From Candidatus Omnitrophota bacterium (lineage in GTDB: Bacteria > Omnitrophota > Gorgyraeia > Gygaellales > Profunditerraquicolaceae): a stretch of 64,000 bases of DNA. A model generated the notes under the pieces. It worked only from the letters and a program-made list of their open reading frames with translations. It ran no database searches and was not told where the DNA came from. Shown piece after piece: positions 4,891-61,413 of the stretch (position 1 is its first letter; each line of letters begins with the position of its first letter). A program made the position numbers and the translations under genes. The DNA lies in NCBI GenBank assembly GCA_011620275.1, contig WOZK01000004.1, positions 21,931 through 85,930 of the forward strand. Reading direction: 5' to 3'.

Positions 4891-4980
4891 ATTCCGGGGA
4901 CACATTACTTAATTATACGGGGACACGATACTTTAAAAGTATCGTGTCCCCGGAATTCAAGTATCGTGTCCCCGGAATTC
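4891..4980. repeat. Cluster of four copies of the 23-bp REP-like element in the mraY-murF junction. Two are forward, and two are inverted and tandem. The inner forward and inverted pair form a perfect hairpin (CGGGGACACGATACTT-TAA-AAGTATCGTGTCCCCG).
   Basis: Direct reading gives attccggggacacattacttaat, cggggacacgatactt, aagtatcgtgtccccggaattc and aagtatcgtgtccccggaattc. The last copies encode the final 7 codons (EFRGHDT) and the stop of the murF ORF. Confidence 0.85.
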
Positions 4981-6330
4981 GAACACTTTCTCCATCCGCA
5001 TCCCGCGAGAACCTTTGACCAGCACGAGGTCTCTGCAGGTAACCTTAAGCGTATCGCGCAGGATACCGGCTGCCTGCGCGGAATCGGCGCAGCAGAATAT
5101 CTTCTCCGCCGCGAGTCCCGCATCCCGCGCAGCCCCGGCAGCGACGCTGGCGAGCCCGCCGACAGCCACGAGGACATCGCATACCCCGGCGGCCAGCGCT
5201 CCGGCCAGGCGATGGAACTCACCGGAGGTCGGCCCCAGTTCCAGCATATCCCCCATCACCAGTACTTTTCTGCCTACGGCGGTCATCGTCCCCAAAGCCT
5301 CTACGGCGCGCTCAAACGAAAGCGGATTGGAATTATACGTATCGTCTATGAATACCGTTACATCGCTTTTAAGCAGGCTCATCCTGCCGGCCGGAAAATC
5401 AAAACCGCCTAATTTAGCGCATATCCGATCGTAATCTATACCGAGTATCCTGCCGACTGCGGCCGCGGCCAGGGCGTTATAGACGTTATGCGCCCCTATG
5501 GTCTTCAACCGGCACGGAATTTTCCTCCCGCGCCCAATCAGGAACTCCGCTCCGCGCCGCGTGGTTTTTACTCCGGAAGCGATAAAATCGGCTCCCGGAG
5601 ACATCCCGTAACCGAATGCCCGGCGCCTCTTGATTAGCGGAACCAGCATTTTATCGTCGGCATTAAGTATCGCTACCGCCGGGCGGCGCAAGTATTTTAA
5701 CAGAGACGCCTTCTCTTTAAGGACCCCGCTCAAACTGCCGAAATGTTCCAGGTGAGAAGGCCCTATATTGGTAATAACGGCAATTGTCGGCCTGCAGACC
5801 GCGGCAAGATAAGCGATCTCGCCCGGGTGATTGCTCCCCAGTTCAAAGACGGCCGCCTGGTGCGAGGCCTTCAATTCCAGCAGCGCCAGCGGCATCCCGA
5901 TATGATTATTCCTGGTGCCCCGGTTTTTCAACACCCTGTAACCGGCGGAAAGCGCGCAGGCGATCATATCCTTGGTTGTGGTCTTGCCGTTAGAACCGGT
6001 CACGGCGACCACCGGTATATCAAAACGCATTCTGTGGAAATACGCGATAGCGGAAAGCGCCCTGACCGTGTCTTTTACCACGACCACGGCCGGACCTGAC
6101 GGTATCCCTGAAAGACCGCGCCTTGCCGTCACCAGACAGGCAGCGCCTTTGCGCGCCGCCTCCGCCAGAAAATCATGCCCGTCGAAATGCTCCCCTTTGA
6201 CCGCCACGAAAACCTGGCCCGGCACGACAGAACGGGAATCTATAGAGACACCGAGCATACTCCTCTCAACGCTGCCGGGACGAGCCAACCTTCCACAGGT
6301 AGCCTTTAGGATCTCTGAAAGCGTAAACAT
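4957..6330 (-). CDS. murF: UDP-N-acetylmuramoyl-tripeptide--D-alanyl-D-alanine ligase MurF
   Basis: N-terminus MFTLSEILKA...SIDSRSV.PGQVFVAVKGEHFDGHDF, P-loop VTGSNGKTT, 457 aa. The 3' end runs into the REP-like cluster. Confidence 0.88.
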   Translation of the reverse strand: MFTLSEILKATCGRLARPGSVERSMLGVSIDSRSVVPGQVFVAVKGEHFDGHDFLAEAARKGAACLVTARRGLSGIPSGPAVVVVKDTVRALSAIAYFHRMRFDIPVVAVTGSNGKTTTKDMIACALSAGYRVLKNRGTRNNHIGMPLALLELKASHQAAVFELGSNHPGEIAYLAAVCRPTIAVITNIGPSHLEHFGSLSGVLKEKASLLKYLRRPAVAILNADDKMLVPLIKRRRAFGYGMSPGADFIASGVKTTRRGAEFLIGRGRKIPCRLKTIGAHNVYNALAAAAVGRILGIDYDRICAKLGGFDFPAGRMSLLKSDVTVFIDDTYNSNPLSFERAVEALGTMTAVGRKVLVMGDMLELGPTSGEFHRLAGALAAGVCDVLVAVGGLASVAAGAARDAGLAAEKIFCCADSAQAAGILRDTLKVTCRDLVLVKGSRGMRMEKVFEFRGHDT

Positions 6331-7775
6331 TCCCTCACAACCTCTCTATCGTCGAAATGCAGTTTTTCCGCGCCGATTATCTGGTAATCCTCATGTCCTT
6401 TACCGGCGACCAGCACGATATCCCCGGCCGCTGCCATATCCAAAGCCGCGGCTATCGCTTCTTTCCGGTCGGGCACCACTCGGTAATTATCGCTTTTCAT
6501 ACCCTCTTCTATGGCTGAGATTATCGAAGCCGGACTCTCGGAACGCGGATTATCATTGGTAACCAGCGCGTAGTCGGAAAGCTCCGAGACTATCCCTCCC
6601 ATAAGAGGCCGCTTCTGCCTATCCCTCTCCCCTCCGCATCCGAACACGGTGATGATGCGCCCGGAAGATAATTGTCTGAGCGACGAAAGGACCTTTTCCA
6701 GCGCGTCCGGAGTATGCGCGTAATCCACGTAAACTGAGTAGCCGCGCGGGGAATCAATACGTTCCATTCTCCCGGGGACATAAGAGAAACTCTCCAGCGC
6801 GGTTTTGAGCGTTTTCCTGTCTATGCCGGAACACAAGGCCCAAACGGAAGCCGCCAGCGCGTTGTAAACGTTGTGCCGGCCTACGAGAGCCGTCCGGAAC
6901 GACTCTCCGCAGTCCGCGCCTTGCACCGTGATCCTGAAACTGCTCTCCTGCCCGGAAAGCCGGATGTCCACGGCCCGAAAATCTGAGCCTTCCAGCAGGC
7001 CGTAACCGTTCACCGCGGCCGCGGTCATCCCGCACAGCCTGCGTCCGCGTTCGTCGTCGGTATTTATGACGCAGAACGCCTTACCGGAAAGCCCGGAGAA
7101 CAACAGCGTCTTGGCCCGGAAATATTCTTCTTCCGTTTTATGGTAATCAAGATGATCCCGGGTCAGGTTCGTGAAGACGGCGGAGTGGAATTCCACGCCC
7201 TCCGTCCTGCGTTGATCGAGCGCGTGTGAAGAAACCTCCATAACCGCGTAAGACGCTCCGTTTTCATACATAGACGACAAAAGCCTCTGCAGTTCCACGG
7301 CGCCGGGGGTGGTGTTGGTAGAAGGCAGGACTTCTTCTCCCAGCCTGTAATTCACCGTGCCTATCACGCCGGCCTTTGCCCCGGAACAGGCAATGATATG
7401 CTCCAGCAGATATGTCAGGGTGGTCTTGCCGTTGGTGCCGGTTATACCCGCCACCTTGAGTTTCGAAGAAGGCTCACCATAAAAACGCGACGCCAGCCTG
7501 CCCGCGGCCGTTCTCGGATCTTCCGTTACCAGGCGGGCCACGCCCGCCGGCAGTTCCTCGAGCGCTTTGACATTCCCGGCTACGACGGCCGACGCGCCTT
7601 TAGAGACCGCCTCCGGGATGAACCTGTGCCCGTCCGTTCCGCAGCCGGGCACCGCGATGAAAAGCTCTCTCTTGATAGCGCGCCTGGAGTCCACGCATAT
7701 CCCGCGGATATCGCAGTCCGGACCTTCGTCAATCCTCGATACCGTCGTTCCCGAAATCAACCTGCTTAACTTCAT
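6306..7775 (-). CDS. murE: UDP-N-acetylmuramoyl-L-alanyl-D-glutamate--2,6-diaminopimelate ligase MurE
   Basis: P-loop GITGTNGKTT, 489 aa Mur ligase, dcw synteny between ftsI and murF. Confidence 0.9.
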   Translation of the reverse strand: MKLSRLISGTTVSRIDEGPDCDIRGICVDSRRAIKRELFIAVPGCGTDGHRFIPEAVSKGASAVVAGNVKALEELPAGVARLVTEDPRTAAGRLASRFYGEPSSKLKVAGITGTNGKTTLTYLLEHIIACSGAKAGVIGTVNYRLGEEVLPSTNTTPGAVELQRLLSSMYENGASYAVMEVSSHALDQRRTEGVEFHSAVFTNLTRDHLDYHKTEEEYFRAKTLLFSGLSGKAFCVINTDDERGRRLCGMTAAAVNGYGLLEGSDFRAVDIRLSGQESSFRITVQGADCGESFRTALVGRHNVYNALAASVWALCSGIDRKTLKTALESFSYVPGRMERIDSPRGYSVYVDYAHTPDALEKVLSSLRQLSSGRIITVFGCGGERDRQKRPLMGGIVSELSDYALVTNDNPRSESPASIISAIEEGMKSDNYRVVPDRKEAIAAALDMAAAGDIVLVAGKGHEDYQIIGAEKLHFDDREVVRECLRFQRS

Positions 7776-9477
7776 TTAACTTCCAGACCTCCTCGACCGA
7801 CTGTTTTGTCTTAAGATACCGCAAAGTGTCGGATACCACGTTCCTGAACACCGGGGAAGCGACCACTCCGCCGTAATAATAAGGCCGCGGTTCGTCGAGC
7901 ACTACCGCGACCACCAGCGCCGGTTCCTCGGCCGGCGCGAAGCCGACGAAAGAAGCGGTGAATTTACTGTGAGAATACCTGCCGTCCGGATCCAGCTTCT
8001 GGGCGGTCCCGGTCTTGCCCCCGGCGGTAAACCCCGGGACCTGGGCGAGCTTGCCCGTGCCGTGCTGCACCACTCCGGTGAGTATCTTGCGCATCCTGGC
8101 CGCCGTTTCCGCAGAGATCACCTGCCGGATCGCCTGCGGTTTGAACTCCTGGATTGCCTCACCGTATTTATCCCTCACCTCGCTTACCAGGTAAGGCTTC
8201 ATCAAAGTCCCGCCGTTGGCGATAACCGAAAAAGCGCAGGCCAGTTGCAAAACGGTCACACCGATCTCCTGTCCCATCGGCATCGTGGCTATCGATATCT
8301 TCGACCATTGTCTCGGGTTCTTTGTCACTCCGGAGATCTCTCCGGGGATATCCACTCCGGTCTTGGCGCCGAAACCGAACAGCTTGATATAACGGTAAAA
8401 CTCCGCCGGCCCGAGCTTCTGGGCGATCTTGGAGGTGCCGATGTTGCTCGACTGTTCAATCACCTCGCTGAAAGTCAGCCAACCGTGCGAACGGTGGTCG
8501 TGCAGGACGTGGCTGGCTATGCGGTAGGATCCGTTCTCACAAAAAAACTTCTCGTCCTCCCGGCTTTTCTTTTCCTCCAGCGCCCCGGCAGCCGCGACTA
8601 TCTTGAAGACCGATCCCGGCTCGAACATATCGCATACCGCGCGGTTGCGCCTGCTGTCCTGGGCGGAAGACGAATACTCGTTAAGGTCGAACGTCGGCCG
8701 GTTTGCCATAGCCAGGATCGCCCCGGTATGCGGATTCATCACCACGATACTCCCGCCTTTGGCATTGCTCGATTCGTAAGCCTTCTGGAGTTCTCGTTCG
8801 GCGATGTACTGGATCACGCCGTCGATGGTCATCACTACGTTGTCGCCGTCTTTAGGCAGAACCATGTTTTCCCATATCTCAAGCCGTTTCTGCCTGGCGT
8901 CGCGCAAGAAATAAGCCCAGCCCCCCTCGCCCTTGAGATATTTGTTATATAAAAGTTCGTTCCCCTCCAGCCCGTTATTGTCTATGCCGGCGAACCCTAT
9001 CAGGTGGCTGGACAGGTAACCGTTGGGATAACAGCGTTTACTTTCTTTAACGCAGCCGACACCCTTGATATTAAGCTTCCTCACCTCTTCGCTCTGCTGC
9101 GGCGTCATCTTTCGCTGCAGCCAGATGAAATATTTTTTTCTCCCCAGGCGCTCGCTTAAATAAGAACGTTCTACCCCGAGTATAGGCGCCAGCTGTTTTA
9201 TCGCGCGCTCCTTGTCCGCTGAAGACATCCCCGCAGGCGAGGCGAAGAGCGAATCCGCCGGTATGTTGATGGCCTGCGGCCGCATATTGATGTCGTATAT
9301 CGTCCCGCGGCGCGGTTCGAGCTCGACATAAAGGTTATGTTGTTTACGGGCTATCGAGGCGAGGTATTCCGAGCGGAAGAACTGGATGAACAACAACCGT
9401 GCTACGCAGAGAAAAAAAAATAAGAAAAACAGAAAAAAGACCGCATTAAAGCGGCGGCGGTAGGCGGCTATATACAC
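7729..9477 (-). CDS. ftsI: Peptidoglycan D,D-transpeptidase FtsI (class B PBP)
   Basis: N-terminal membrane anchor, PBP dimerisation region and transpeptidase domain. 582 aa. The apparent start codon is GTG at 9477. Confidence 0.85.
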   Translation of the reverse strand: MYIAAYRRRFNAVFFLFFLFFFLCVARLLFIQFFRSEYLASIARKQHNLYVELEPRRGTIYDINMRPQAINIPADSLFASPAGMSSADKERAIKQLAPILGVERSYLSERLGRKKYFIWLQRKMTPQQSEEVRKLNIKGVGCVKESKRCYPNGYLSSHLIGFAGIDNNGLEGNELLYNKYLKGEGGWAYFLRDARQKRLEIWENMVLPKDGDNVVMTIDGVIQYIAERELQKAYESSNAKGGSIVVMNPHTGAILAMANRPTFDLNEYSSSAQDSRRNRAVCDMFEPGSVFKIVAAAGALEEKKSREDEKFFCENGSYRIASHVLHDHRSHGWLTFSEVIEQSSNIGTSKIAQKLGPAEFYRYIKLFGFGAKTGVDIPGEISGVTKNPRQWSKISIATMPMGQEIGVTVLQLACAFSVIANGGTLMKPYLVSEVRDKYGEAIQEFKPQAIRQVISAETAARMRKILTGVVQHGTGKLAQVPGFTAGGKTGTAQKLDPDGRYSHSKFTASFVGFAPAEEPALVVAVVLDEPRPYYYGGVVASPVFRNVVSDTLRYLKTKQSVEEVWKLNEVKQVDFGNDGIED

Positions 9478-9696
9478 AACTATATAATAAAGATTATACC
9501 GGCGCCGGGTTCTGCACCGCGCCGGTTTACCGGGGAAGGTCCGTTTCCTCTCCTCCAGCCGGTAATCGTCTGATTATCGGAATATCCGCCCGCCAGGCCT
9601 CCCTGGGCCGCGCGGAGAGATATCTGTCCCGGATGTAACCGCGGGATCTTATACAATAATTGCTCCGGCTTGCACTGCCTGCCGCAAAGCGGAAAG

Positions 9697-10065: not shown

Positions 10066-10066
10066 T

Positions 10067-15296: not shown

Positions 15297-15324
15297 AATC
15301 GCTCCCGATTCCATAATCGTCTCG

Positions 15325-15530
15325 ATTCCGGGGATACGATACTTAATCCCTCGGCAACGGCTACGGTAACCAGCAGAATTCAACCTGTCTTTCCTCCCAA
15401 ATGGATACCACTATTCTTTCCTCCCCAATGGATGCCACCAATCTTTCCTCCCCTCGATGGGGAGGATGAAGGAGGGGTGATAATCTTCCCTATCCTCCGA
15501 TGGGAAAAACGAAGGAGGGATAATATTGAA
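15325..15530. repeat. Composite repeat. One 23-bp REP-like copy (attccggggatacgatacttaat) is followed by a CGGCAACGG..GGTAACC segment and a degenerate tandem array built around the hairpin TCCTCCCC-TCGA-TGGGGAGGA (family 2).
   Basis: Near-identical ~75-bp core (CTTTCCTCCCCTCGATGGGGAGGATGAAGGAGGGGTGATAATCTTCCCT) recurs at 55085..55160, and in reverse orientation at 52080..52160. Confidence 0.7.
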
Positions 15531-15629
15531 GCATCGACGAGACTAAAACAACGGGATCAGAGCCGATAATTGATATTCCTAAACCACGGCTAAAGCATTC
15601 TGAACCCACGCGCGCTAATCATGTATCAA

Positions 15630-17664: not shown

Positions 17665-17782
17665 CGGTTTTACCTCCGGTAAATAATATTTATGCTTCCA
17701 AGGCGCTAAAACTTTACCTTAAAGAAAAAAGTGTTGCAGCCGCCGCTCAGCACAAAAACCATGAACGCATCGAGGAGCAAAA

Positions 17783-20118
<2,336 letters not shown>

Positions 20119-20203
20119 AGGAGCACCCCGAATTTTAATTATAACACGATAATTATGTGAAGAGAAATCAATTCACAAATTAAACATTAAGCATTCCGGA
20201 ACG

Positions 20204-20533
20204 ATGGTTAAACCCATTCAATTTACCCGCAGCAGGCCATACCACAAGGACGATAACGCCCATGTAGAACAGAAAAACTGGTCTCATGTCCGACAGTGGT
20301 CCGGCTATCACCGACTCGAGAATCAAAAGATCGTTGCCCTTATAAATAACCTTTTTCCCAATGAATGGAGACTATTTCACAAACGTGCTTTCAAAGAACA
20401 GTTCTTTTACTTAAACCCCTTTAAACTACGTAAAGCTATGGAGAGAAAACTACAGGAAATCTTCACTCTTCACTTCGGCCGCCGGGCTTCTTACCCAATC
20501 CTCCTTCGGATACATTTATTAATGAGTCAATAG
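20204..20533 (+). pseudogene. C-terminal fragment of a DDE transposase (integrase-core RSRPYHKDDNAHVEQKNW tail). The N-terminal two thirds are missing.
   Basis: Only the integrase-core C-terminal segment is present. The region is AT-rich compared with its flanks. It sits in the islet next to tRNA-Arg. Confidence 0.5.
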
Positions 20534-20610
20534 TTTCGGCGCTCCACGCCCTAAAGGCCGCGGTTCGCTTATGATTTTGATAGGAAATTCTTGAAGGAAA
20601 GCAAGATCGG

Positions 20611-20943
20611 TCAGAAAAGAAGGGCCAGCGCCTGTTTCACCGTCTGGCCTGCCGCTATCCCGAGCTCGGCGGCTGCCGGACTGCATTCGCTTACTTTGAC
20701 TTCCAGAGCCTCTTCTATGTAAGCCGCGCCGGAAAATTTTAAGACGGCGTCACCGAATTTAACGGAGGCGCCCATATCGAGATAACCGCACATCCCGTAG
20801 CCCTTATCCGCTTTGAGAACAATAAAATTCCTGCCTCCCAGCGGCAGTTGCAAGGCGGTTATTTTATACTTCGACGGCGCTAAAACCGCGCCCTTAAAGA
20901 CGCGGATAATCCGGGTGCCGCTCAGCATCAAAATCATGAGCAA
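20611..20943 (-). CDS. Small protein of the DUF1805 / YunC-like family (GYGMCGYLD motif)
   Basis: KADKGYGMCGYLDMGA resembles the YunC GYIMCG core. The N-terminus overlaps a 45-bp repeat, so the start is uncertain. Confidence 0.5.
   Translation of the reverse strand: MLMILMLSGTRIIRVFKGAVLAPSKYKITALQLPLGGRNFIVLKADKGYGMCGYLDMGASVKFGDAVLKFSGAAYIEEALEVKVSECSPAAAELGIAAGQTVKQALALLF
20865..20910. repeat. 45-bp repeat (family 3), TATACTTYGACGGCGCTAAAAYCGCGCC.TT.A.AACGCGGATAAT, copy 1
   Basis: Near-identical to 27725..27770. It contains a GGCGC-N7-GCGCC hairpin and a TATAAA box on the gene strand. Confidence 0.5.
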
Positions 20944-21045
20944 ACCCCGGCCTTTAGGCCCGTGGCGCGCCGAATTGATTCCAGTTAATGTATTATATCT
21001 CTTATCAGCATCCCGAGATATCTACGCGGATGTCATCATCCCCGC

Positions 21046-22231: not shown

Positions 22232-22238
22232 ATTTTAA

Positions 22239-22370
22239 ATTCCGGGGACACGATACTTAATTCCAGAAAACGATAAAAAACCGTGTTAGATTCCGCCATT
22301 TTCTTGCGTCTATTATAACAAAATAGGATTATAACATAAGTTTCCTGATTCCGGGGACACAATACTTAAT
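22239..22370. repeat. Two direct copies of the 23-bp REP-like element (22239..22261 and 22348..22370) upstream of the RAYT gene
   Basis: attccggggacacgatacttaat and attccggggacacaatacttaat. Confidence 0.85.
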
Positions 22371-22471
22371 CCTTTGGGTTCTTAGAAAGATTTTCTTGAG
22401 GCAGCGGCCAAACCTCATTCGCTCCATAGATGACGCGCTTCTTGTATAAACCAACAAAAAGGAGGCTCTCA

Positions 22472-23083
22472 ATGGCAAGGATAGCGAGATTAGTTATACC
22501 CGGAATTCCTCACCATATTGTTGTACAAAGAGGCAATAGACGTCAAGATGTCTTCTTTAACGACGATGACAGGAGGACTTATCTTAATTATCTAAAAACA
22601 TACGCTATGCCTTCAGGGATAGAATTCCTGTCATATTGTTTAATGGAAAATCACGTGCATATTATTGGTGTCCCGAGTAACAAAGATAGTTTCGCCAACG
22701 GTTTCGGAGAAGCACACCGTAGATATACAAGAATGATTAATTTCAGAAAAGGATGGAGAGGATATTTATGGGAGGGCAGATTCAAATCGTACCCCTTAGA
22801 GGGCACTTATTTATATGCCGCGCTTCGTTATATAGAAATGAATCCTGTAAGGGCAAAAATGGTGAAGAACGCCTGGGACTATCCTTGGTCAAGCGCAAAA
22901 GCACATGTCCTAAACCACACTGACATTTTACTAACCAATAATTGTATCGCTCCGGTAGTGGAGGACTGGAGATCATTTCTTTCTGAAGATGACAAACAAG
23001 ATACCGTCAACTTATTAGAAACGCATTTGATGAGCGGACGGCCGTTGGGAGATAATAAATTTATTGAGAAGTTAAAAAACTAA
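22472..23083 (+). CDS. REP-associated tyrosine transposase (RAYT; IS200/IS605-like Y1 HUH transposase)
   Basis: HUH motif NHVHIIGVP. RAYT signature YIEMNPVRAKMV with catalytic Tyr. N-terminal IPHHIVQRGNRRQDVFF. AGGAGG SD 8 nt upstream. The gene is markedly AT-rich. It is flanked by inverted copies of the 23-bp repeat. Confidence 0.85.
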   Translation: MARIARLVIPGIPHHIVVQRGNRRQDVFFNDDDRRTYLNYLKTYAMPSGIEFLSYCLMENHVHIIGVPSNKDSFANGFGEAHRRYTRMINFRKGWRGYLWEGRFKSYPLEGTYLYAALRYIEMNPVRAKMVKNAWDYPWSSAKAHVLNHTDILLTNNCIAPVVEDWRSFLSEDDKQDTVNLLETHLMSGRPLGDNKFIEKLKN

Positions 23084-23161
23084 CCGGTAAAATACTGTAT
23101 AAACAGAAACCGGGGCCGAAGAAGGCTGAGAATGAAACTCCCCGGGCTGAGCTGCTTAATA

Positions 23162-23184
23162 ATTAAGTATCGTGTCCCCGGAAT
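23162..23184. repeat. 23-bp REP-like element, inverted copy downstream of the RAYT gene
   Basis: attaagtatcgtgtccccggaat. Confidence 0.85.
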
Positions 23185-23194
23185 TACGAGCAAG

Positions 23195-23268
23195 TGCGCC
23201 TGGCAGGACTCGAACCTGCAACGCCCAGCTCCGAAGGCTGGCGCTCTATCCAATTGAGCTACAGGCGC
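23195..23268 (-). tRNA. tRNA-Arg (anticodon TCG)
   Basis: Manual fold gives a 7-bp acceptor stem, a D-arm GTAGCTCAATTGGATAGAGC typical of Arg tRNAs, anticodon loop CTTCGGA and T-arm GGTTCGAGTCC. CCA is not encoded. Confidence 0.8.
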
Positions 23269-27708: not shown

Positions 27709-27724
27709 TATCTCCCCGCCGGTT

Positions 27725-27770
27725 TATACTTTGACGGCGCTAAAATCGCGCCTTTTAGAACGCGGATAAT
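27725..27770. repeat. 45-bp repeat (family 3), copy 2, in the lpxD to lpxC::fabZ intergenic region
   Basis: tatactttgacggcgctaaaatcgcgccttttagaacgcggataat, near-identical to 20865..20910. Confidence 0.5.
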
Positions 27771-32106: not shown

Positions 32107-32301
32107 ATCCGAAGTGAAATTTTATACCTCATACACGTTAACCCCGGCCGCGTCACCGTCGAAAAATACACGGTCGCAACAATTTTTCTCAGTATAACAC
32201 ACCGCATTCAAAAAGCAATAGAAAAATCTCTCCCCGAATTAACTCATATGAAATCTAACCGAAAGTTTTCTATACAGGCAGGTATCGTTGACTCATCAGA
32301 T

Positions 32302-33242
32302 CCCGGGGACACAATACTTAATTATAAGTTTCCTGTAAGTTTTAAATGGGTACGTAGTGTTTATTAAGTCTGGTAAAATCCAAACGGCCGGTTACCAGGA
32401 AAGCGCCGATCCTGAAGTACCGGAAGGTGCTGAAACCTATGGCGTTAGCCTTAGCCGCCTGAATTAAGAAATTAAGTCCTTCAAGGAAACCGTTATCAAT
32501 GTGCGATTTCTTCCACTGCACAACACCTTCCCAGTGAGCTTTAATCGTGCGGGCGGCTTTGTGTCTGTACTTCTTGTTTGCGAACCGTATCAACTGCCGT
32601 GTTGATGATTTTGATGATATGGAACCGGCCAAAGGTAATCTCGGCGTTAGGGAAATTATCCTTAATGCCCTTTATAAAAGCCGGCCACATATCACAACTG
32701 ACATCCGTGACTGCCTGCGGGTTGCCGTTGTGTTCTTTGATATCCTCGGCAAAAGCTTCAACGGTCTTTTGGTCATTGCCTTCGGCGATGAAAACGGTTC
32801 GCTTCTTGAGAAGGTCAACGAACAAGGTAATGTAATCGTGGCCCTTACGCCTTGAAGTCTCATCTATGCCGACGCCTTTAAGATCCCTGTAATCGTTGCC
32901 GGCCAAGGCCAGAGTCACATAACGTTCCAGTATCGCCCAAATCTTGTAATCTGATTCGCCAGTAATCCGGCTGACAGTATGAACCGGCATATGGCCGGCT
33001 AACTGGATAAGCAAAATGAAAAATCGCGCCTTTGTGAAAATCAATGTGAATATCCAGCCGCTTGCTTTCGGCGCTAAACTGGATATCTTTGATATACCAC
33101 GGTTCTTGAATATTTAGAGCAAGCTCAAACAGCTGTTGGGTAAACATTGGCATCCTCCTGGTTTATTGTTCCTACAGGATTATACCAAATTACCCATTCG
33201 AATTTCAGTAGACTGTTAAATTAAGTATTGTGTCCCCGGAAT
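32302..33242. mobile_element. Degenerate ISL3-family element, bounded at both ends by inverted copies of the 23-bp repeat (32302..32322 and 33220..33242)
   Basis: The left end is cccggggacacaatacttaat. The right end is attaagtattgtgtccccggaat. The internal transposase reading frame is frameshifted. The element is AT-rich. Confidence 0.6.
32342..33153 (-). pseudogene. ISL3-family transposase split over three frames (at least two frameshifts)
   Basis: The frames contain ISL3-like segments (HTH-like VSRITGESDYKIWAILERY; DDE core GVGIDETSRRKGHDYITLFVDL, CDMWPAFIKGIKDNFPNAEITFGRFHIIK; and a C-terminal NGFLEGLNFLIQAAKANAIGFSTF). Confidence 0.7.
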
Positions 33243-33249
33243 TACGGAA

Positions 33250-44567: not shown

Positions 44568-44598
44568 TTTTATCCCGGAACTCACGCGTGACGGCGTA

Positions 44599-44664
44599 AA
44601 TCCGGGGACACTATACTTAATTATTCCCAAAACCACAGACATTTAAGTATTGTGTCCCCGGAAT
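44599..44664. repeat. REPIN-like inverted doublet of the 23-bp element (forward 44599..44621, 19-bp spacer, inverted 44641..44664)
   Basis: aatccggggacactatacttaat...atttaagtattgtgtccccggaat, which can form a ~23-bp stem hairpin. Confidence 0.85.
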
Positions 44665-44679
44665 CCTATTAACAACCTA

Positions 44680-45694: not shown

Positions 45695-46253
45695 ACTACC
45701 TCCGATAAATGCGGTCATTCTTTCCGGATTCCCCTGAAGCCCCCAGGCAAACGCCGGACAGCCGGAAACAACGAAAAGAAACACCTTTATTGTAGAAAGA
45801 AATGAAGCTCCCCAGGCTTCAGACTGTGGTAATCCTTAGACAAACTAAAAATAAGTTTGCGTTACATACCGGCCACAACAATAACCACGGGAAAAACGCA
45901 AAAAAAATACCCCCTTATGCTCCCTTTTGGGGAGCACTTCAGGAATGGTTTCTTAATTATACAGATGGAAAAACCTTTTGTAAAGCAACTAATTGATTAA
46001 AAACAAAAACGGCCCCGTGCCTCAGGTCGTCCTTGTGAGGAGCAAAATGGCAAAGCAACCCTTCCCAGCCGGATTGCTCCGCAAAAAACGCCTGTAATGA
46101 CCATATATCCTATAAAGTATTGCTCGGGAGGACAATATCCCGAAGCATTCTCTTGCTCCCGCCTTTGCTTTTATTTTTACTTCCCGACATTTCAAATATT
46201 AATTATTGTCTCTCCGGTTTGAAAATAGTATAATTGGATAAAAGGATAGCAAT

Positions 46254-51875: not shown

Positions 51876-52253
51876 CCAAGAACCGAAACGGGCTTAGTTA
51901 CCGTTGCCGATATTAAAACTCGTTTATCGTTTATGATGCCCTTGTCTTAGTCTTTATTTCCCTTCCCCTGGTGGGGGAGCAATAAGGACGATGATACTCT
52001 TCCTGCATCTTCCCCATCGAGGGGAAGAAAGATATGAATAATCTATTGGTTCGGGAGGGGATTGATTATCACCCCTCTAAAGCCTCCTTAGTTGTCACCC
52101 CTCCTCTATCCTCCTTAGTTACCACCCCTCCTTCATCCTCCCCATCGAGGGGAGGAAATACAGATTGAACCCTATTGGGTACCGTAGCCGAGAACCAAAA
52201 CGGACTTTGTTACCGTAACCGTTACCGAATTAAGTATCGTGTTCCCGGAATTC
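51876..52253. repeat. Composite repeat region upstream of the por operon. It has two ~45-bp GGTTACCGTAACC-type direct repeats, a G4/C4 hairpin tandem array (family 2, reverse orientation), and a terminal 23-bp REP-like copy at 52228..52253.
   Basis: The hairpins are TCCCC-TGGT-GGGGGA, CTTCCCC-ATCGA-GGGGAAG, GAGGGG-N11-CCCCTC and CCTCCCC-ATCGA-GGGGAGG. It has the same module order as 15325..15530, but inverted. Confidence 0.7.
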
Positions 52254-53974: not shown

Positions 53975-55030
53975 TTAACCGGATGATTTTCTTTTTTTCA
54001 CTATCACCTCGTCCTTCTTGCGTTTAGTGCCCCTCGAGTTCTTCTGCTGCCATTCCCACGCCGAGGAGATTATTTGTTCCAAGCCGAGCTTGGGCCTCCA
54101 GCCAAGGAGTGCTTCAGCTTTGGCGTAGGAGGCCACTAGTTCCGCGGCGTCCCCTGGCCTGCGCGCGGCTATTTTCACCGGGATGGGACTGCCGGTGACT
54201 CTCTCGACGAATGAGATCATTTCTTTGACGCTGTATCCCCTGCCGCTGCCCAGATTCAAGGCGGCGTTTTTCACGCCCTTGCCCAGCGCGTCCAGGGCCA
54301 GCAAATGCGCCCGGACCAAATCCATCACGTGTATGTAATCCCTGATGCAGGTACCGTCGCGCGTGGGATAGTCATCCCCGAAGATGTTCAACGCCGGGAT
54401 ATCGCCCGCCGCCGCCTTCAGCGCGTTGGGAAGCAGATGCGTCGCCTCTTCAAGCGGCTGTCCTATCCTGCCGCTCGGGTGCGCTCCGGAAACGTTGAAG
54501 TAACGCAAAGACAGATAATCCATCTTTCCGGAGGCGGCGCAATCACGCAACATCTGCTCCACCATCATCTTGGAAGTTCCGTAAGGGTTCTCCGGCCGCA
54601 AGGGGACTTCCTCGTTCACCGGCATCAGTTCCGGCTGGCCGTAAACCGCGGCCGAGGAAGAGAAAATGAATTTGCGCGCGCCGTGCTTCAGGCAATGTCG
54701 AAGCAAGTTGACAGATCCCCAGACGTTGTTTTCGTAGTACTTCAACGGCTCGCTCACCGACTCCGGGACCACGATCGAAGCCGCGAAATGCAAGACGGCA
54801 TCGAAGCGGAAGCGCGAAAAAAGCTTCTCCAGATCCTGTGCGGACCGCAGATCACCCCGCACGAATTCCACGCCCTCCGGGACGCGCTCCCGCCTGCCGG
54901 TAGATAGATCGTCGAACACCACCGCTTCTCGACCCTGCTCAAGCAAGAGGCTCAACATATGCGAACCGATATACCCGGCACCACCGGTGATCAAAATGAG
55001 ATTATTTTTCAACGTAAGCTCCGAAGACAC
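53975..55030 (-). CDS. galE: UDP-glucose 4-epimerase GalE (SDR family)
   Basis: LITGGAGYIGSH and the YxxxK catalytic region. 351 aa. Confidence 0.85.
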   Translation of the reverse strand: MSSELTLKNNLILITGGAGYIGSHMLSLLLEQGREAVVFDDLSTGRRERVPEGVEFVRGDLRSAQDLEKLFSRFRFDAVLHFAASIVVPESVSEPLKYYENNVWGSVNLLRHCLKHGARKFIFSSSAAVYGQPELMPVNEEVPLRPENPYGTSKMMVEQMLRDCAASGKMDYLSLRYFNVSGAHPSGRIGQPLEEATHLLPNALKAAAGDIPALNIFGDDYPTRDGTCIRDYIHVMDLVRAHLLALDALGKGVKNAALNLGSGRGYSVKEMISFVERVTGSPIPVKIAARRPGDAAELVASYAKAEALLGWRPKLGLEQIISSAWEWQQKNSRGTKRKKDEVIVKKRKSSG

Positions 55031-55302
55031 AATTATTCGGCAACGGTCACGGTTACCAACAGACCCCTACCTGTCTTTCCTCCCGAATGGGCACCTCCAA
55101 TCTTTCCTCCCCTCGATGGGGAGGATGAAGGAGGGGTGATAATCTTCCCTGTCATCCGATGGAGAGGATGAAGAAGGGGTGGTAATCAAGGATGATTTAG
55201 GAGGGGTGACAATCAGTGCGCTGTTCAGTAAGTTTTTTAGACAGCTCACAGAGTCCGCTAAAACTTTAGTGCGGGCGGTCAAATTTCGACTTTCGATTTT
55301 TA
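55031..55302. repeat. Adjacent copies of repeat family 2 (55031..55215) and of the ~90-bp family 4 element (55215..55302, inverted relative to 3684..3770)
   Basis: The family-2 part has a CGGCAACGGTCACGGTTACC leader, then CTTTCCTCCCCTCGATGGGGAGGATGAAGGAGGGGTGATAATC, then degenerate GGAGGGGTGRYAATC units. The family-4 part is ~85% identical to copy 1. Confidence 0.7.
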
Positions 55303-56579: not shown

Positions 56580-56788
56580 AATATTGATTTTACCATAAAC
56601 TTCCTTTAAGCTTAAGGCATATTTATTCCCGGCCCGATAGCCGGAAGCATTTTTTCTATTCGCTCCCCCGAAAAAGTTGACACAAACAATAGTTTCCAGA
56701 CCGCGGCGGCGATAAACCTTATACAGCAGCAAACATACATCCTTTTAAAAAAATCCGGTATTCAGCATGGCAAATAAAGCGAACACCT

Positions 56789-57480
56789 TTAAAGTTGAGC
56801 CATACTTCTATATGTTCCCGAGAGGATTCTTCTGCAAGCGAAGTCGGCGCTGATCAGGCACATCGGCACGCCGATGCCGGGGAGGGTGTTGCCTCCGGCA
56901 TAAAACAGGTTGCGTATTTTCCTGCTCCTGTTAGCCGGCCTGAACATCGCGGTCTGCCCGAGAGTATACGCCAGCCCGAGCGCGGAACCGCGGAAGCTGT
57001 GGTAACGCGAGACGAAGTCCTTCACGCAGAAATGATGTTTGACCTGCAGTCTTGACCGCAAGGACGGGATATTCCTTTTTCCATTATGTGCAGTATTTTG
57101 TCCGTATAGGCGGATAGTTCTCCGGTCCCGTATTCCAGCCCGGCAGGGATCGGCACGAAAACGAACAGGTGTGGCGCGACGGCGAGGTCGGAGTAAAAAT
57201 CCGCCTGCCTTCCCCCTTTAAAAAGGACCCGTAGGAAGGGCTCAATTTCACCAGCTCCAGATAGTCAACCACACGCTCATTGAGTAGCGCGAAGAATTTC
57301 TCGAAGATGTCAGGATTAAGGCACCAAGGACGGCCCCATATCGTAAACGAAACCCTGTGCCTCCATAATATTACAACGCCCGCCGGATTTACGGTTATTG
57401 TCGAACACTTTCACCTCCCACCTTCTTCTTGGACAAGGATGCAGGCTGAAGCCAGGCCGCCGATACCGGCCCCGATGACC
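56789..57480 (-). pseudogene. Remnant of a phytoene-desaturase-family (CrtI/HpnE-like amine oxidase) gene. About half is deleted and it has multiple frameshifts.
   Basis: N-terminal MKKKAAVIGAGIGGLASA FAD motif, then a stop. Internal fragments lie in other frames. The C-terminal LFYAGGNTLPGIGVPMCLISA signature is in the 56789..57061 ORF. Total span is ~0.7 kb, against ~1.5 kb expected. Confidence 0.55.
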
Positions 57481-57493
57481 GCGGCTTTCTTCT

Positions 57494-58378
57494 TCATATA
57501 TTCCCTCCGGGCAGATTTAAAAGCGTTCTTAAAGCCAGAACCGCTTTCTCGGCCGTCCCGCTGCGGGCGCGGCCGAGGAAGCGGTTATAGTCCATCTGTT
57601 TTATCTTCACCAGGATGCGGCTGTAGAAAGCCGAGGCCACGCGCACCGCCAGCCTGCCGCGCTTGTCCAGCATGGCGATGCCGGGCTGAGCGCGGCGGTA
57701 AATCCCGGCAGAGCGCTCTACCTGTAATTTCATAAAATCCCGAAATGCCGGCGAGAAACGCCTGTGCGAGATGTCCTCACGCGAGAGCCCATAGGCAGCC
57801 AGCTCGTCGAGCGGCATGTATATCCTTCCCCTCTGCCGGTAATCCTCGTCTATATCGCGCAGAAAATTGGTAAGCTGCATCGCTTCTCCCAGGCAGGAGG
57901 CGTATTCCAGCGCGCGCGAATCGTTGAAACCGATGATGTAACAAAGCATCAATCCCACCACGCAGGCAGAGCCGTACATATATTCGCGCAATTCTCCGTA
58001 ATCCGCGTATTCCCGCTTCTCGATATCCATGAACATCGAGCGAAAAAAATCCTCGCTGTAACCGTAGGGGATATTGTATCTGCGGAACACTCTCAGCGCC
58101 GAACGCAAAACAGGCTCATCGGAAACATCTCCGCGGCAGGCGGCACGCCACTTGCCCAGCCAGGCGGAAAGCTCTGCCTTTATGCGCTCTTCGCCGCCGG
58201 AACGGTTATTGTCCACGATCTCATCGGGGATGCGCAGGAAGGCGTAAAGCGAATATACGGAACAGCGTAATTCCGCCGGGAAAAAAGCGGCGGCGTAATA
58301 ATAATTCAAGCCGTGCTTTTTGTTGAGCGAACGGCAGATCCGCAGATCCTCTTTTCCCGTTCCGGAAACTACAGGCAT
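57494..58378 (-). CDS. Squalene/phytoene synthase family protein (CrtB/HpnD-like)
   Basis: YYYAAAFFP...LYAFLRIPDEIVD (first Asp-rich motif), a second motif region FLRDIDEDY, and a YM(I)G..VGLML-type core. Probable start at 58378. 294 aa. Confidence 0.75.
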   Translation of the reverse strand: MPVVSGTGKEDLRICRSLNKKHGLNYYYAAAFFPAELRCSVYSLYAFLRIPDEIVDNNRSGGEERIKAELSAWLGKWRAACRGDVSDEPVLRSALRVFRRYNIPYGYSEDFFRSMFMDIEKREYADYGELREYMYGSACVVGLMLCYIIGFNDSRALEYASCLGEAMQLTNFLRDIDEDYRQRGRIYMPLDELAAYGLSREDISHRRFSPAFRDFMKLQVERSAGIYRRAQPGIAMLDKRGRLAVRVASAFYSRILVKIKQMDYNRFLGRARSGTAEKAVLALRTLLNLPGGNI

Positions 58379-58510
58379 ATTCACCGGTTTTGCGCTTTTT
58401 CCCAGACGATCAGGCAGAAGCCGGCCATGCTGAAATCGAAGAGAAAATCCTCCAGCAGAATACTCGCCCAGCCTTATGCCGGAGAACATCGTTGGGTTAT
58501 AGATAACTAT

Positions 58511-58973
58511 CTACCGCGAAGTAAGATAACCGTTCACCAGCAGTTTAAAGAAAAAATCACCGCTAGAAAAACGTAGAAGAGGCGGCGCTTCATCAGCCCG
58601 GGCCGGAAGATTCTGTCCATTACCGGTATCGCCGCGGCAAAAATGATTGCGAACAGGGTATATTCCCGCATCACGCCTTCCTGAATCTCGTTCCAGATAC
58701 TTGAGAGTTCCCCAAGTAAAAAGACAACAGAACGGTATGACCACAAAGAAAAGTATTTCCTCCAGCGGGAGGCCGAGGAAACGAAACGGCCGCACGGCCA
58801 GGCCAATGGCCGCGAGCGGCAGCCAGGACGTCCCAGCCGCCGAAAACCAACAAAGTAGCGCCTATCGCGATGGTAAACGCTGATAAACGGCGGTACAATT
58901 TTAAAATGGGCCAGAAACTAAGGAACAGAGGCAGGAAAAGAGAAATCAAAAGTACCGCCATGTATTCCGACAT
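58511..58973 (-). pseudogene. Lycopene cyclase domain (CrtYcd-type) gene, disrupted by at least two frameshifts and truncated
   Basis: Frame A has MSEYMAVLLISLFLPL...GGWDVLAAARGHW. Frame C has FLGLPLEEILFFVVIPFCCLF. Frame B has REYTLFAIIFAAAIPV. These are the characteristic WDxxAxxxGxW and PLEExLFF motifs, in different frames. Confidence 0.5.
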
Positions 58974-59262
58974 AACCTTATTTTATCTTAACCGTCGAAT
59001 ACGTCAACAATATTTAAGGGTCTTAACGCCATGGCATGGATTCCATGAAATTGACTTTTGATACCTTATTTTCATCTTTCTTGTCTCGTACTCATTCATC
59101 ACCGCACAATCGAACACTTGACAATCCGACAAGCTAAGGTTTAGACCCGATACCTCCAAAGGGCAGGGCGTTCCAGACTATTTAAGGGACACACTTATGC
59201 CGCAGCTCTCTACGGCAGCGAAAGAGAAAGACACCCGGGGCCGCGACGAGGCAATACAATAA

Positions 59263-60300
59263 TCAACAGGCAAGCAGACGTTCGGCGTAATCGGCAAGGG
59301 CTGTTCGGTAGCTTTGACGCATGCGCAGTGAATTGCCTATCTTCAAGGCCTTTTCGCGCAAGTCATAAACTTCTTGTTTGACGTGTTCCAGGGCGCCGCA
59401 GCCGGCGATAATCCCGCGCATCCGCGCCAGGTCTGAGAAGGTAACCCGTTTTTTTGCCAACATGGTCTTGATCTCGGCGCGCTGGCCGAAATTCCCCATG
59501 CGATAGGCGTAATACATCAACACCGTCTTTTTGGCTTCCTGAAGGTCGCTCAAGGAAGGTTTGCCGCTTTCATCGGAGTTCGAGAACATACCGATGATAT
59601 CATCCTTAATCTGAAAGGCCCTGCCGAGGCAGATGCTGTATTCGTCAAGTTTTCTTATTTCGGACGCGGGAGCGTTAGCCAGGATGGCGCCCACGGATAA
59701 CGGACAGGAAAATGTATAGTAGGCGGTCTTATAATCGTAGATCTTGTATATGTCCGCGAGTTTGACACGGCTGATATCTTCTCCTCCCAAAAGCAGTTCA
59801 ATGAATTCCCCGGCGCCGGTATAAAGCGCGGCGTCCACGAATTTGCGCAGGCCCTGTTCTTTGTATTTCATATCCACCTGGACCTCCAGGAAGGCGTGAA
59901 TGGCCATGGCATAAACCACGTCTCCGGCAACGATCGCCAGATCCTGCCCGCTGAATTTGACCTTCGAGGCGCCTCTGATACCTTTACTCAGGAGAACGTG
60001 CATAGCCGGTTTACCACGCCGCAAGTCTGATTTATCGATGATATCGTCGTGGATGAGCATAAAATCGTGCAACAGCTCGATGGATAGAGCCGAGGTATAC
60101 AACCCCGGCGCCGGTTTGCCGGCATAGCCGAGATAACCTACCGCGAGCATTATCGGACGGATGCGCTTGCCGTCCCTGCCGATAAACTCACAAATGGCCC
60201 GTTCAAGGGAAGGAGATACGGCTTTTAGGCTGCGGAAACGCCCGTTTTTCAGGAGTTTCACGAGTTCTCCGTCGATTTCTTTCTTTAGAATTTCAAACAT
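59263..60300 (-). CDS. Polyprenyl diphosphate synthase (GGPP/FPP synthase family, CrtE/IspA-like)
   Basis: First aspartate-rich motif LIHDDIID and a second one in FQIKDDIIG. 345 aa. Confidence 0.85.
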   Translation of the reverse strand: MFEILKKEIDGELVKLLKNGRFRSLKAVSPSLERAICEFIGRDGKRIRPIMLAVGYLGYAGKPAPGLYTSALSIELLHDFMLIHDDIIDKSDLRRGKPAMHVLLSKGIRGASKVKFSGQDLAIVAGDVVYAMAIHAFLEVQVDMKYKEQGLRKFVDAALYTGAGEFIELLLGGEDISRVKLADIYKIYDYKTAYYTFSCPLSVGAILANAPASEIRKLDEYSICLGRAFQIKDDIIGMFSNSDESGKPSLSDLQEAKKTVLMYYAYRMGNFGQRAEIKTMLAKKRVTFSDLARMRGIIAGCGALEHVKQEVYDLREKALKIGNSLRMRQSYRTALADYAERLLAC

Positions 60301-60321
60301 GGCTTCCTCTTTCCGCGCTAC

Positions 60322-61236
60322 TCAGTATCCCAAGTCCTTCAATATATACGGATCATCCTGCCATCCCTCGCGGACCTTAACGTGCATCTGCAGGAAGACC
60401 TTCTTGTCCAGCAGCATCTCCAGTTCGGAACGGGCCGTTTCCCCGGCTTTTTTCAAAACACTACCGCCCTTGCCGATGACTATTGACTTCTGCGAATCCC
60501 TCTCCACCAGCACGACCGCGGATATAAACATCACTTTACCCCGCCTCTGCGTCGTTTCCTCCACATACACTGCCAGGGAATGCGGTATCTCATCTTTCAG
60601 GAAAAGAAAGAATTTCTCTCTAATGATATCAGCGATCGCCAGCTTCTGGGGAAAATCCGTAAGAACTTCCGGCGGATAAAGCAATGGCCCTTCCGGCAGC
60701 AGTCCGAAGAGAACGTCCACCAGCTTGTCGGTATTGATACCGGTCATCCCGGAGACCGGCATCAGAACGAACCTATCCGCCGTCTCTGTCACCGGCTTGC
60801 CGAGCGCCTTTTCCCATTCTTTGATGTAGCCGTCCATATAGGCAGCCTTGCGATCGACCTTGTTCATCGCCAGGATTACCGGGATTTTCCTGCCGCTGAG
60901 TTTCTCTATGATCATGCCTTCTTCGCGGCCGAGCCGTTCGCAGGCGTCCACCAGATGGATTATAACGTCTGCTCCTTCAATGGCGCTGTCTATGTCGCTA
61001 AGCATGTGCCGGCCGAGTTTGTTGCGAGAGAGGTAAATCCCCGGGGTATCGAGAAAAACGATCTGCCCGCGTTTTTCGGTGAGCACGCCGCGCACCTGGT
61101 AACGAGTCGTTTGCGGAACCGGAGAGACTATCGCCACCTTCTCCCCCAGAAGAGTATTCATCAGTGTGGATTTCCCGGTGCTTGGTCTGCCGACTATACA
61201 AACTACGCCGCAGCGTTGACCTTTTTGATCATTCAT
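60322..61236 (-). CDS. era: GTPase Era
   Basis: G1 motif GRPSTGKST, G3 DTPG, G4 NKVD, and a C-terminal KH domain. The probable start MNDQKGQRCGVV is at 61236. The ORF-track N-extension MCPRSVPG... is read-through of a REP doublet. Confidence 0.88.
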   Translation of the reverse strand: MNDQKGQRCGVVCIVGRPSTGKSTLMNTLLGEKVAIVSPVPQTTRYQVRGVLTEKRGQIVFLDTPGIYLSRNKLGRHMLSDIDSAIEGADVIIHLVDACERLGREEGMIIEKLSGRKIPVILAMNKVDRKAAYMDGYIKEWEKALGKPVTETADRFVLMPVSGMTGINTDKLVDVLFGLLPEGPLLYPPEVLTDFPQKLAIADIIREKFFLFLKDEIPHSLAVYVEETTQRRGKVMFISAVVLVERDSQKSIVIGKGGSVLKKAGETARSELEMLLDKKVFLQMHVKVREGWQDDPYILKDLGY

Positions 61237-61337
61237 AACCTGTTGAAAGATATAAGAAACGGGTTGAACAATAATGTTTGCATCCCTACCAGCGCCGTTA
61301 TAATAACACAGCGGAAAAAACAAGGCAAACCTTTTAA

Positions 61338-61413
61338 TACCGGGGACACTCCGGGGACACAATACCTAATTGCGAGTATAGCGATAAATAATTAAGTATT
61401 GTGTCCCCGGAAT
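61338..61413. repeat. REPIN-like inverted doublet of the 23-bp element in the divergent era/mutS intergenic region. An extra partial copy sits at 61338..61350.
   Basis: taccggggacact, then ccggggacacaatacctaat, a 20-bp spacer, then attaagtattgtgtccccggaat. Confidence 0.85.

Follow-up and report, generated by a model that had tools for sequence, protein, structure and literature searches.

A probable TIRtron and its dispersed 25-nucleotide terminal inverted repeat in an Omnitrophota genome

Some genes related to the REP-associated tyrosine transposases (RAYTs; REP, repetitive extragenic palindromic sequence) are bracketed by terminal inverted repeats (TIRs) instead of REPs carrying a GTAG tag. 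Such genes have been called TIRYTs, and the structures that they form TIRtrons (Di Nocera 2013, BMC Genomics 14:522, PMC3733652). Passages of that paper state that the sequence GGGGWSAS is common to many TIRs and that certain TIR families are scattered as singles, dimers or groups; they describe the TIR families as 'moderately abundant' and the TIRYTs as 'less productive'. We have analyzed a gene that is probably of this kind, together with a dispersed repeat of 25 nt, in a 64,000-nt stretch of contig WOZK01000004.1 (assembly GCA_011620275.1) from a Candidatus Omnitrophota bacterium. This whole stretch is referred to as the window.

Most TIRYTs belong to subclass 2.1 of the TnpAY1 proteins, corresponding to Group 1 of the RAYTs (Quentin 2018, PMC6006769; Bertels 2017, PMC5581495). 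The proteins of subclass 2.1 are marked by the motifs NHVH, W[EQ] and YIELNP and by an SS tail, and their genes by the flanking consensus GGGG[AT][CG]A[CG]. Most members have a C-terminal domain resembling a helix-turn-helix (HTH), although subgroup 2.1.2 is heterogeneous in this region, and no REP-like sequences are reported for the subclass (PMC6006769). The 16-mers that flank Group 1 genes have only about 12 occurrences per replicon (PMC5581495). This is the largest and most widespread group of RAYTs, and two large surveys associate little or no repeat family with it.

We estimate the probability at roughly 0.8 that the element in the window is an Omnitrophota TIRtron, in which a TIRYT of Group 1 (subclass 2.1) is bracketed by a 25-nt TIR with the core GGGGACAC, and the unit is dispersed between genes. 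It represents a known, little-studied class. The original prediction, that of REPINs (inverted doublets of REPs) mobilized by a RAYT, was right in kind and wrong in the specific family.

The 25-nucleotide unit and the gene that it brackets

Scanning the window with ATTCCGGGGACACRATACTTAAT gave 14 matches at three or fewer mismatches, compared with none in 100 dinucleotide-preserving shuffles, which bears out the prediction of a dispersed family with at least 14 copies. All of the copies derive from a single unit of exactly 25 nt, AATTCCGGGGACACRATACTTAATT. A scan with this 25-mer, allowing up to 4 mismatches in 25, found these 14 copies again, and five mononucleotide shuffles of the window contained no match at up to 6. 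Also recovered were a truncated arm, at 4913-4937, and two weak relics, at 868-892 and at 46197-46221; in all, some four decayed copies exist beyond the 14. The commonest 16-mers of the window, with five occurrences each, all come from this family. The edges of the unit are sharp, with about 2 bits of information inside the 25 nt and zero just outside (178 copies from 110 public genome stretches), and the flanks of the window copies have no common sequence, except at those starting at 15324, 52228 and 55018.

Every copy in the window lies between genes or at a gene end, as predicted, next to unrelated genes and in both orientations. The predicted positions also hold, bar small offsets (32300, 52229 and 61348 in place of 32302, 52228 and 61351). 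The units occur solo, as inverted doublets, as nested doublets and in composites with other repeat modules. Their local density of about one unit per 4 kb had been called high, and for Group 1 RAYTs it is.

The transposase gene extends from 22472 to 23083 on the + strand and encodes, as called, a RAYT-like Y1 HUH tyrosine transposase of 203 aa, with a start at M15 that is supported by the gene caller and by homologues. It is bracketed by a left TIR at 22347-22371 (+) and a right TIR at 23161-23185 (−), and the same orientation is found in three further loci (L028, L004 and L071). An extra direct copy without mismatches lies at 22238-22262 (+), 84 bp upstream of the left TIR. The right TIR is 8 bp from a tRNA-Arg(TCG) gene at 23194-23268 (−). 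At 150-546 of L001, from an unrelated gammaproteobacterial metagenome-assembled genome (MAG), two inverted units apparently bracket a tRNA gene, as judged from the translation of the open reading frame (ORF) between them. When the surroundings of the TIRtron were scanned for promoters and terminators, no signal exceeded chance and none was associated with the unit.

The protein matches Pfam Y1_Tnp with 36.6 bits (cutoff 23). Among NCBIfam models REP_Tyr_transpos fits best, but its 53 bits fall short of the cutoff of 80, and the only sequence match in the PDB is 4ER8, E. coli TnpA-REP (E 4e-5). The residues H75, H77 and Y134 are present, and all 11 aligned homologues share the HUH histidines and the catalytic tyrosine without exception. 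When compared by eye with the published table for subclass 2.1, the signature motifs are found as ENHVH, YLWEGRF, RYIEMNP and PWSSA. The locus comprises an HUH/Tyr gene, non-GTAG inverted repeats whose distances from the gene are similar from genome to genome, and GGGGWSAS within the core GGGGACAC, and it has the optional TIRtron trait of a TIR family dispersed as singles, dimers and groups. Taken together, the protein motifs and the TIR flanks with this core indicate a TIRtron with a dispersed TIR family. The REPIN-associated Groups 2 and 3 are not the ones that fit; the gene conforms to the TIRYTs, Group 1 and subclass 2.1. At E ≤ 1, Pfam detected only Y1_Tnp in three full-length homologues, with no C-terminal HTH-like domain (Bac_DnaA_C, HTH_23 or HTH_28); the tail of this TIRYT family is different, reading GRPLGD...LTGR...KPGPK. 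A literature search for the core GGGGACAC returned nothing relevant.

An intact RAYT flanked by inverted copies had been predicted. The flanking copies are there, but the gene is not strictly intact. Alignment of the DNA with a 91%-identical orthologue reveals a 1-nt deletion in an A-run at ~23074, by which the TIRYT stops about 20 residues early and loses a conserved C-terminal tail; this tail, LTGKILYKQKPGPK, remains encoded out of frame to ~23135. Within the invariant motif PHHI-QRGNRR the protein also carries one inserted residue that is unique to it. A Logan assembly, which may derive from the window's own reads, yields the identical 203-aa product, so that the frameshift is probably real and not an assembly error. 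The strain of the window was found only as one 14-kb Logan contig, whose identical sequence is uninformative on polymorphism. Relative to Candidatus Undivivens industriae, another member of the Omnitrophota, a 29-bp deletion at ~23136 removes an extra degenerate + unit just 3′ of the gene.

Repeat and transposase are linked across bacteria. The exact 20-mer CCGGGGACACRATACTTAAT occurs in at least 110 stretches, and the matches listed represent about 78 assemblies, as counted by accession prefix. Among these matches are Omnitrophota, Pseudomonadota, Planctomycetota, Bacillota, Desulfobacterota, Elusimicrobiota, Bdellovibrionota, Nitrospirota, Spirochaetota, Actinomycetota, Saccharibacteria, Desantisbacteria and WOR-3. 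Transposases of only 46-50% identity lie between inverted copies of the 25-nt unit in two MAGs, a GC-rich one of the Pseudomonadota and one of the Bacteriovoracaceae. A homologue of 36% identity on a plasmid of R. rubrum has perfect 19-nt flanking inverted repeats that contain GGGGTCAG. Plasmid homologues as a whole are rare (22 of 72,556 records) and distant (at most 38% identity), so that the element is not plasmid-borne, and since viral contigs contained no exact match to the 20-mer, phage carriage is unsupported as the route of spread.

The same link is seen at 80 metagenome loci that were picked solely because they encode a TIRYT homologue, at 46-68% identity. Core-bearing units are present on both sides of the gene at 66 of them; a + unit lies ~55-64 bp upstream at 50 of the loci, and a − unit ~50-65 bp downstream at 52. 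The core, GGGGACA(C/G)nATAC, is nearly fixed in these loci, while the outer positions vary with lineage; over 132 flanking copies, conservation at unit positions 7-13 is 90-100%. Within a locus the left and right units vary together, at a mean distance of 4.1, compared with 7.4 ± 0.19 when pairs are shuffled (0 of 2000 shuffles). One TIRYT lineage, at the metagenome locus L117, has exchanged its TIR for a flanking repeat that is a perfect hairpin in itself, AATTCGGTG-ACACA-CACCGAATT, indicating that TIR-type ends and REP-type, self-palindromic ends are interconvertible within the TIRYT clade.

Complementary ends and hairpin doublets

The unit consists of an asymmetric 17-nt core between complementary tetranucleotides, such as AATT...AATT, AGTT...AACT and AAAT...ATTT. 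We examined the ends in 147 distinct units flanking homologues, which were anchored on the exact core only, so that the ends had not been selected for. Positions 2 and 24 change in a complementary manner (A-T 77 and G-C 19 in the formal count), as do positions 3 and 23 (T-A 73, A-T 29). In the same 147 units no covariation was found at positions 5/21 and 6/20 or in the flanks. Paired cells make up 74% compared with 66% in shuffles, and changes on both sides occupy 61 cells compared with 29. The covariation score, 0.319, exceeds the 0.197 of shuffles (0 of 500), although the sequences are related and this control therefore overstates the significance. More trustworthy is a control in which the register is slid: it retains the relatedness and still singles out the register of 2/24 and 3/23, all slid registers scoring 0.128 or less. 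By analogy with characterized transposases, the complementary, co-varying tetranucleotides may be paired cleavage and guide sites. An origin of the AATT ends as a target-site duplication was considered and rejected: the variants are complementary (AGTT...AACT) and not direct, G2 pairing with C24 and not with G24.

Does the unit fold? Three solo units gave folding energies of 0 to −3.2 kcal mol-1, no better than shuffles, and the unit is not palindromic. The GT[AG]G tag is absent from the consensus, which starts AATT (with the variants AGTT and AAAT). Thus neither the stem-loop of its own nor the 5′ GT[AG]G of a canonical REP is present. The doublets, in contrast, do fold. Inverted pairs with spacers of about 20 bp had been predicted at 44599-44664 and 61351-61413, and both are found, with spacers of 18 nt that are unrelated to each other. 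As DNA hairpins, the doublets at 44598/44641 and 61347/61390 have energies of −17.9 kcal mol-1 (z = −7.0) and −19.4 kcal mol-1 (z = −7.2), far beyond those of shuffles. The cluster at 4890-4979 forms a single long nested hairpin (−36.9 kcal mol-1, z = −11.5). Over the doublets of the window and of the Ca. Undivivens stretch L104, z-scores range from −7 to −13.

The arrangement of the doublets follows a rule. Among 178 copies at 110 loci there are about 28 close pairs in the order + −, and none in the order − +; the CCGG ends are always outside and the TTAATT ends inside. The spacing varies. In the window and 13 loci of close relatives (12 blocks of Ca. Undivivens plus L192), spacers measure 5, 18, 18, 18, 28 and 37 nt and are unrelated in sequence, and solo units outnumber doublets, in what is a small sample from an incomplete genome. 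With such spacers, and with more solos than doublets, nothing marks the doublet as the replicating unit. The pairs resemble REPINs in their short spacers and long hairpins, but not in replication of the doublet together with its spacer (Bertels & Rainey 2011). The window has a single RAYT, and so do the 12 blocks of Ca. Undivivens taken together. The likeness to REPINs stands as far as it denotes a scattered family associated with a RAYT-like Y1 gene, with inverted doublets that form hairpins; it fails on the non-folding unit, the missing GT[AG]G, the unrelated spacers and the excess of solos.

Copies in the window and in relatives

The window is syntenic with contig JAAYZR010000015 of Ca. Undivivens, at 92-93% nucleotide identity. 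The TIRtron is conserved there, including the extra upstream copy, which forms the same pair with an 83-bp gap (in L028). All four sites that can be compared between the two genomes are shared by descent, and the copies at these sites thus predate the split of the two lineages.

Four copies had been predicted at 4891-4980, in the junction between murF and mraY. Four units are indeed present, arranged as a doublet within the spacer of another doublet, with two + units followed by two − units. The outer arms are at 4890-4914 (+, 2 mismatches in 25) and 4955-4979 (−), and the inner arms at 4913-4937 (+) and 4933-4957 (−); in the fold, outer pairs with outer and inner with inner. The inner left arm is truncated, reading ACGGGGACACGATACTTT with 7 mismatches. 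The outer right unit encodes the last seven codons of MurF (EFRGHDT) and its stop, so that murF (4957-6330, −) ends in …VFEFRGHDT*, where relatives have a variable native tail (…VFEETRGTKHEARG…). The junction is syntenic across the Omnitrophota. The repeat is present in the window and in the 92%-identical L192, right after '...MEKVF', the contig of L192 ending inside the unit; it is absent from L193-L196 (67% MurF identity), in which the tail of MurF differs. L193-L196 carry a unit at the mraY-murD junction instead, where the window has a different repeat module. The contrast is one of lineage-specific occupancy of orthologous sites. Comparison of flanks, proposed as a way of finding empty sites, revealed no clean one, since at murF-mraY some 55 bp differ.

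Two copies that had been listed separately, near 32302 and 33220, are the arms of one doublet (32299-32323, +, and 33219-33243, −), split by a degraded ISL3-family insertion at 32327-33215 (−). The insertion lies at the center of the doublet, consists of three frameshifted transposase fragments (Pfam DDE_Tnp_ISL3, NCBIfam transpos_ISL3) and measures ~890 bp; its boundaries are approximate, having been taken from imperfect inverted ends. At the orthologous site of Ca. Undivivens (5899-5953 of L104) it is absent and there is a single intact, tight palindromic doublet, from which it follows that the ISL3 element inserted later into a pre-existing doublet and then decayed. In other bacteria, insertion sequences (IS) are known to use REP hairpins as targets. 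The paper on ISPpu9 does not mention ISL3, and so offers no parallel of an ISL3-family element entering REPs. The split doublet and the nested doublet are both insertion-like events.

The two remaining doublets have arms at 44598-44622 (+) and 44641-44665 (−), in the interval between hisG and a gene for a TPR protein, and at 61347-61371 (+) and 61390-61414 (−), upstream of era. In the latter, which as a whole spans 61340-61414, CCGGGGACAC is partly duplicated at 61340-61349. Besides the extra copy at 22238 (+), the solo units are those at 15324-15348 (+), 52228-52252 (−) and 55018-55040 (+). In Ca. Undivivens the orthologous site has a truncated version of the unit at 52228; that at 55018 is decayed in the window, reading CTCCGAAGACACAATTATT, and is intact in the closest relative (L073, 3639-3663).

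These last three units abut, by their TTAATT ends, a second repeat module of ~150-200 bp, making a composite repeat. The module is found at 15351-15540, 51990-52225 (inverted) and 55037-55215, and in L073 at 3880-4060. It starts YTCGGYAACGGYYACGGTAACC and has repeated TTTCCTCCCCTCGATGGGGAGGATGAAGGAGGGGTGATAATC blocks, including the perfect palindrome CCTCCCCTCGATGGGGAGG. Since the units at 15324, 52228 and 55018 are joined to a common module, they are not fully independent insertions. The expectation that copies would arise by independent insertion, and not by duplication of larger segments, thus holds for most of the family, with its unrelated flanks, and not for these three. A third module of ~85 nt (…GTGCGCTGTTYAGTAAGTTTTTTAGACAGC…GGTCAAATTTCG…) lies at 3686-3770, where it fills the mraY-murD junction that carries a TIR unit in more distant relatives, and at 55215-55299 (inverted, 87% complementary); L073 has relatives of it at ~510-570 and ~3810-3895. 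The intergenic regions are mosaics of several repeat families, comparable to bacterial interspersed mosaic elements. A further short repeat between genes, TTTATACTTCGACGGCGCTAAAACCGCGCC…GACGCGGATAAT, which has no relation to the TIR family, is at 17689-17712, 20863-20910 and 27723-27770, two copies sharing 48 nt at 88% identity.

Two further segments were noted. At 20174-20551 the window has 377 bp where Ca. Undivivens has ~12 bp, with an ORF of 109 aa that has no Pfam match; the 32 nt at its right end (20550-20581) are repeated in inverted orientation at 20927-20958, and the pair brackets a DUF1805 gene. In the ~900 bp next to the last doublet (61415-62336) no ORF reaches 80 aa, and this stretch may represent either a gene that has decayed or an RNA that is not annotated. 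Rfam, applied to the whole window at the gathering threshold, identified only two tRNAs, and at permissive settings gave for 61.3-62.4 kb only a chance miRNA-like match on the hairpin of the doublet.

Explanations and comparison with known systems

How might such a unit be dispersed? By analogy with E. coli TnpA-REP and IS608 TnpA, the TIRYT would recognize the 25-nt unit in trans, and would cleave and rejoin single-stranded DNA through its HUH/Tyr center, thereby dispersing units; the complementary end tetranucleotides may define the cleavage sites. As solo units lack a stable hairpin, recognition would either differ from the hairpin-foot mode or need the doublet form. The age of the copies, which are shared with a relative at ~92% identity, and the 3′ frameshift of the gene make current activity doubtful, and the family may now be inactive in this genome. 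A tentative extension, which we consider rather doubtful, is that the 25-nt unit and not the hairpin doublet is the substrate and dispersal unit of a Group 1 RAYT or TIRYT, its end tetranucleotides acting as a paired guide and cleavage site around the asymmetric, near-invariant core GGGGACAC. Were this so, the mode of mobilization would be distinct from those of REPINs and of IS200/IS605, and repeat populations driven by RAYTs would extend to the largest and least understood RAYT group, in a dozen or more phyla that include candidate phyla. The near-invariance of the 25-mer beside proteins of less than 50% identity, and in genomes that differ greatly in base composition, would then reflect an unusually rigid code of protein-DNA recognition and not recent transfer.

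Several observations weigh against the assignment as a TIRtron with a mobile TIR family. The single unit has no stable hairpin, in contrast to the substrates known for Y1 transposases. The gene in the window carries a frameshift and has its unique inserted residue within an invariant motif, and the HTH-like domain typical of most subclass 2.1 members was undetected. The covariation statistics rest on related sequences, for which the shuffle control is generous. No clean insertion polymorphism was seen at the four sites comparable with Ca. Undivivens, and the contrast at murF-mraY is a replacement of ~55 bp and not a clean empty site. Finally, the TIRYT literature cited here contains no biochemical activity of a TIRYT, so that the mobilization step rests on homology.

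A canonical REP/REPIN-RAYT system, in which a RAYT of the Group 2 or 3 type replicates the doublet and singlets are decayed remnants, would account for the strong hairpins, for the intergenic placement and for a RAYT-like gene between inverted copies, the best NCBIfam model and sole PDB sequence match of which point to REP transposases. We nevertheless find it unlikely, because the unit is neither palindromic nor folding and has no GT[AG]G tag, the spacers are unrelated and of variable length with solos in excess, the NCBIfam score of 53 is below the cutoff of 80, and the protein motifs are those of subclass 2.1 (Group 1) and not of subclasses 2.2 or 2.5. Somewhat less credible again is that the 25-mer is a regulatory or structural site of the host maintained by selection, its link with a transposase-like gene reflecting domestication. 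The unit is near-invariant across phyla while the protein is below 50% identity, its copies are old and shared by different species, and RAYTs have been argued to be housekeeping-like (Bertels et al.). On the other hand, the unit is not associated with any promoter or terminator signal that exceeds chance, and no Rfam family matches it; it has unrelated neighbors, in both orientations, and occupies different orthologous junctions in related lineages; its copies decay and become truncated freely; and lineage-specific variants of the repeat follow the transposase gene next to them.

The 25-bp inverted ends with short spacers are also reminiscent of miniature inverted-repeat transposable elements (MITEs), and fragments of ISL3 lie exactly between two inverted units, as if the units at 32299 and 33219 were TIRs moved by a DDE transposase of this type. 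This is very improbable, given that the doublet of Ca. Undivivens is intact without the IS, that the remnant of ISL3 possesses imperfect ends of its own, lying inside the units, that other repeat loci have no ISL3 while 66 of the 80 TIRYT loci carry units, and that the terminal tetranucleotides are complementary and not direct. As the mobilizing element ISL3 was accordingly rejected, on the intact orthologous doublet and the lack of recurrence. Duplication of larger segments in place of independent insertion would agree with the module shared by the copies at 15324, 52228 and 55018, and with the conserved direct arrangement of the copy at 22238, 84 bp from its neighbor. As a general explanation it is scarcely credible: the other copies have unrelated flanks, the 178 copies contain no flank information, and neighboring genes are unrelated in the ~78 assemblies among the matches listed. 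The conclusion that emerges is that the element is best regarded as a TIRtron, at the probability given above.

The window contains a clear Group-1-type gene with dense cognate repeats in an uncultured phylum, which supports the TIRtron proposal. Its interest lies in the high density for Group 1, in the near-invariance of the repeat across phyla, and in co-varying ends that provide a handle on how a TIRYT reads DNA; the 25-mer, the doublets and the end positions 2/24 and 3/23 are concrete substrates for a first biochemistry of TIRYTs. Such repeats also break short-read assemblies, contigs L191 and L192 ending at or beside them, and can rewrite gene ends, as with the C-terminus of MurF.

Among known systems, the REPIN-RAYT systems of Pseudomonas and the Enterobacteria (Groups 2 and 3) similarly have a single Y1 gene with short inverted intergenic repeats, hairpin doublets, long-lived vertically inherited copies and specificity between protein and repeat. 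They differ from the present family in its non-palindromic unit without GTAG, its unrelated spacers and its conservation across phyla, where REPINs are species-specific. The IS200/IS605 elements (IS608, ISDra2) share the HUH/Tyr core, and the end tetranucleotides recall the guide-cleavage pairing of IS608 TnpA, as outlined in passages of PMC6006769. Unlike them, the element here lacks subterminal hairpins and tnpB and has no autonomous form in multiple copies, and at its ends it has true inverted repeats. The 'double-foot' REPs of subclass 2.4 (PMC6006769) likewise have a 5′ tetranucleotide with its reverse complement at the 3′ end, but their GTAG...CTAC closes a long stem-loop, whereas here an asymmetric 17-nt core forms no stem.

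The resemblance to subclass 2.1 and Group 1 is closer. It extends to NHVH, W[EQ], YIE(L/M)NP and the SS tail, to a length of ~220-240 aa, and to low copy number and wide taxonomic spread. Here, however, cognate repeats are present and Pfam finds no HTH, in contrast to the description of subclass 2.1, and this window alone holds five of each of the commonest family 16-mers, compared with the ~12 genome-wide occurrences reported for flanking 16-mers of Group 1. Closest are the TIRtrons as passages of Di Nocera's paper depict them: a RAYT-like gene at short, fairly fixed distances from non-GTAG TIRs that contain GGGGWSAS and are dispersed as singles, dimers and groups. The host, an uncultured member of the Omnitrophota, and the high local density set the present example apart from those described there. 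Beyond the same passages (PMC3733652) go a near-invariant 25-mer in ~78 assemblies among the matches listed, and complementary end tetranucleotides that co-vary.

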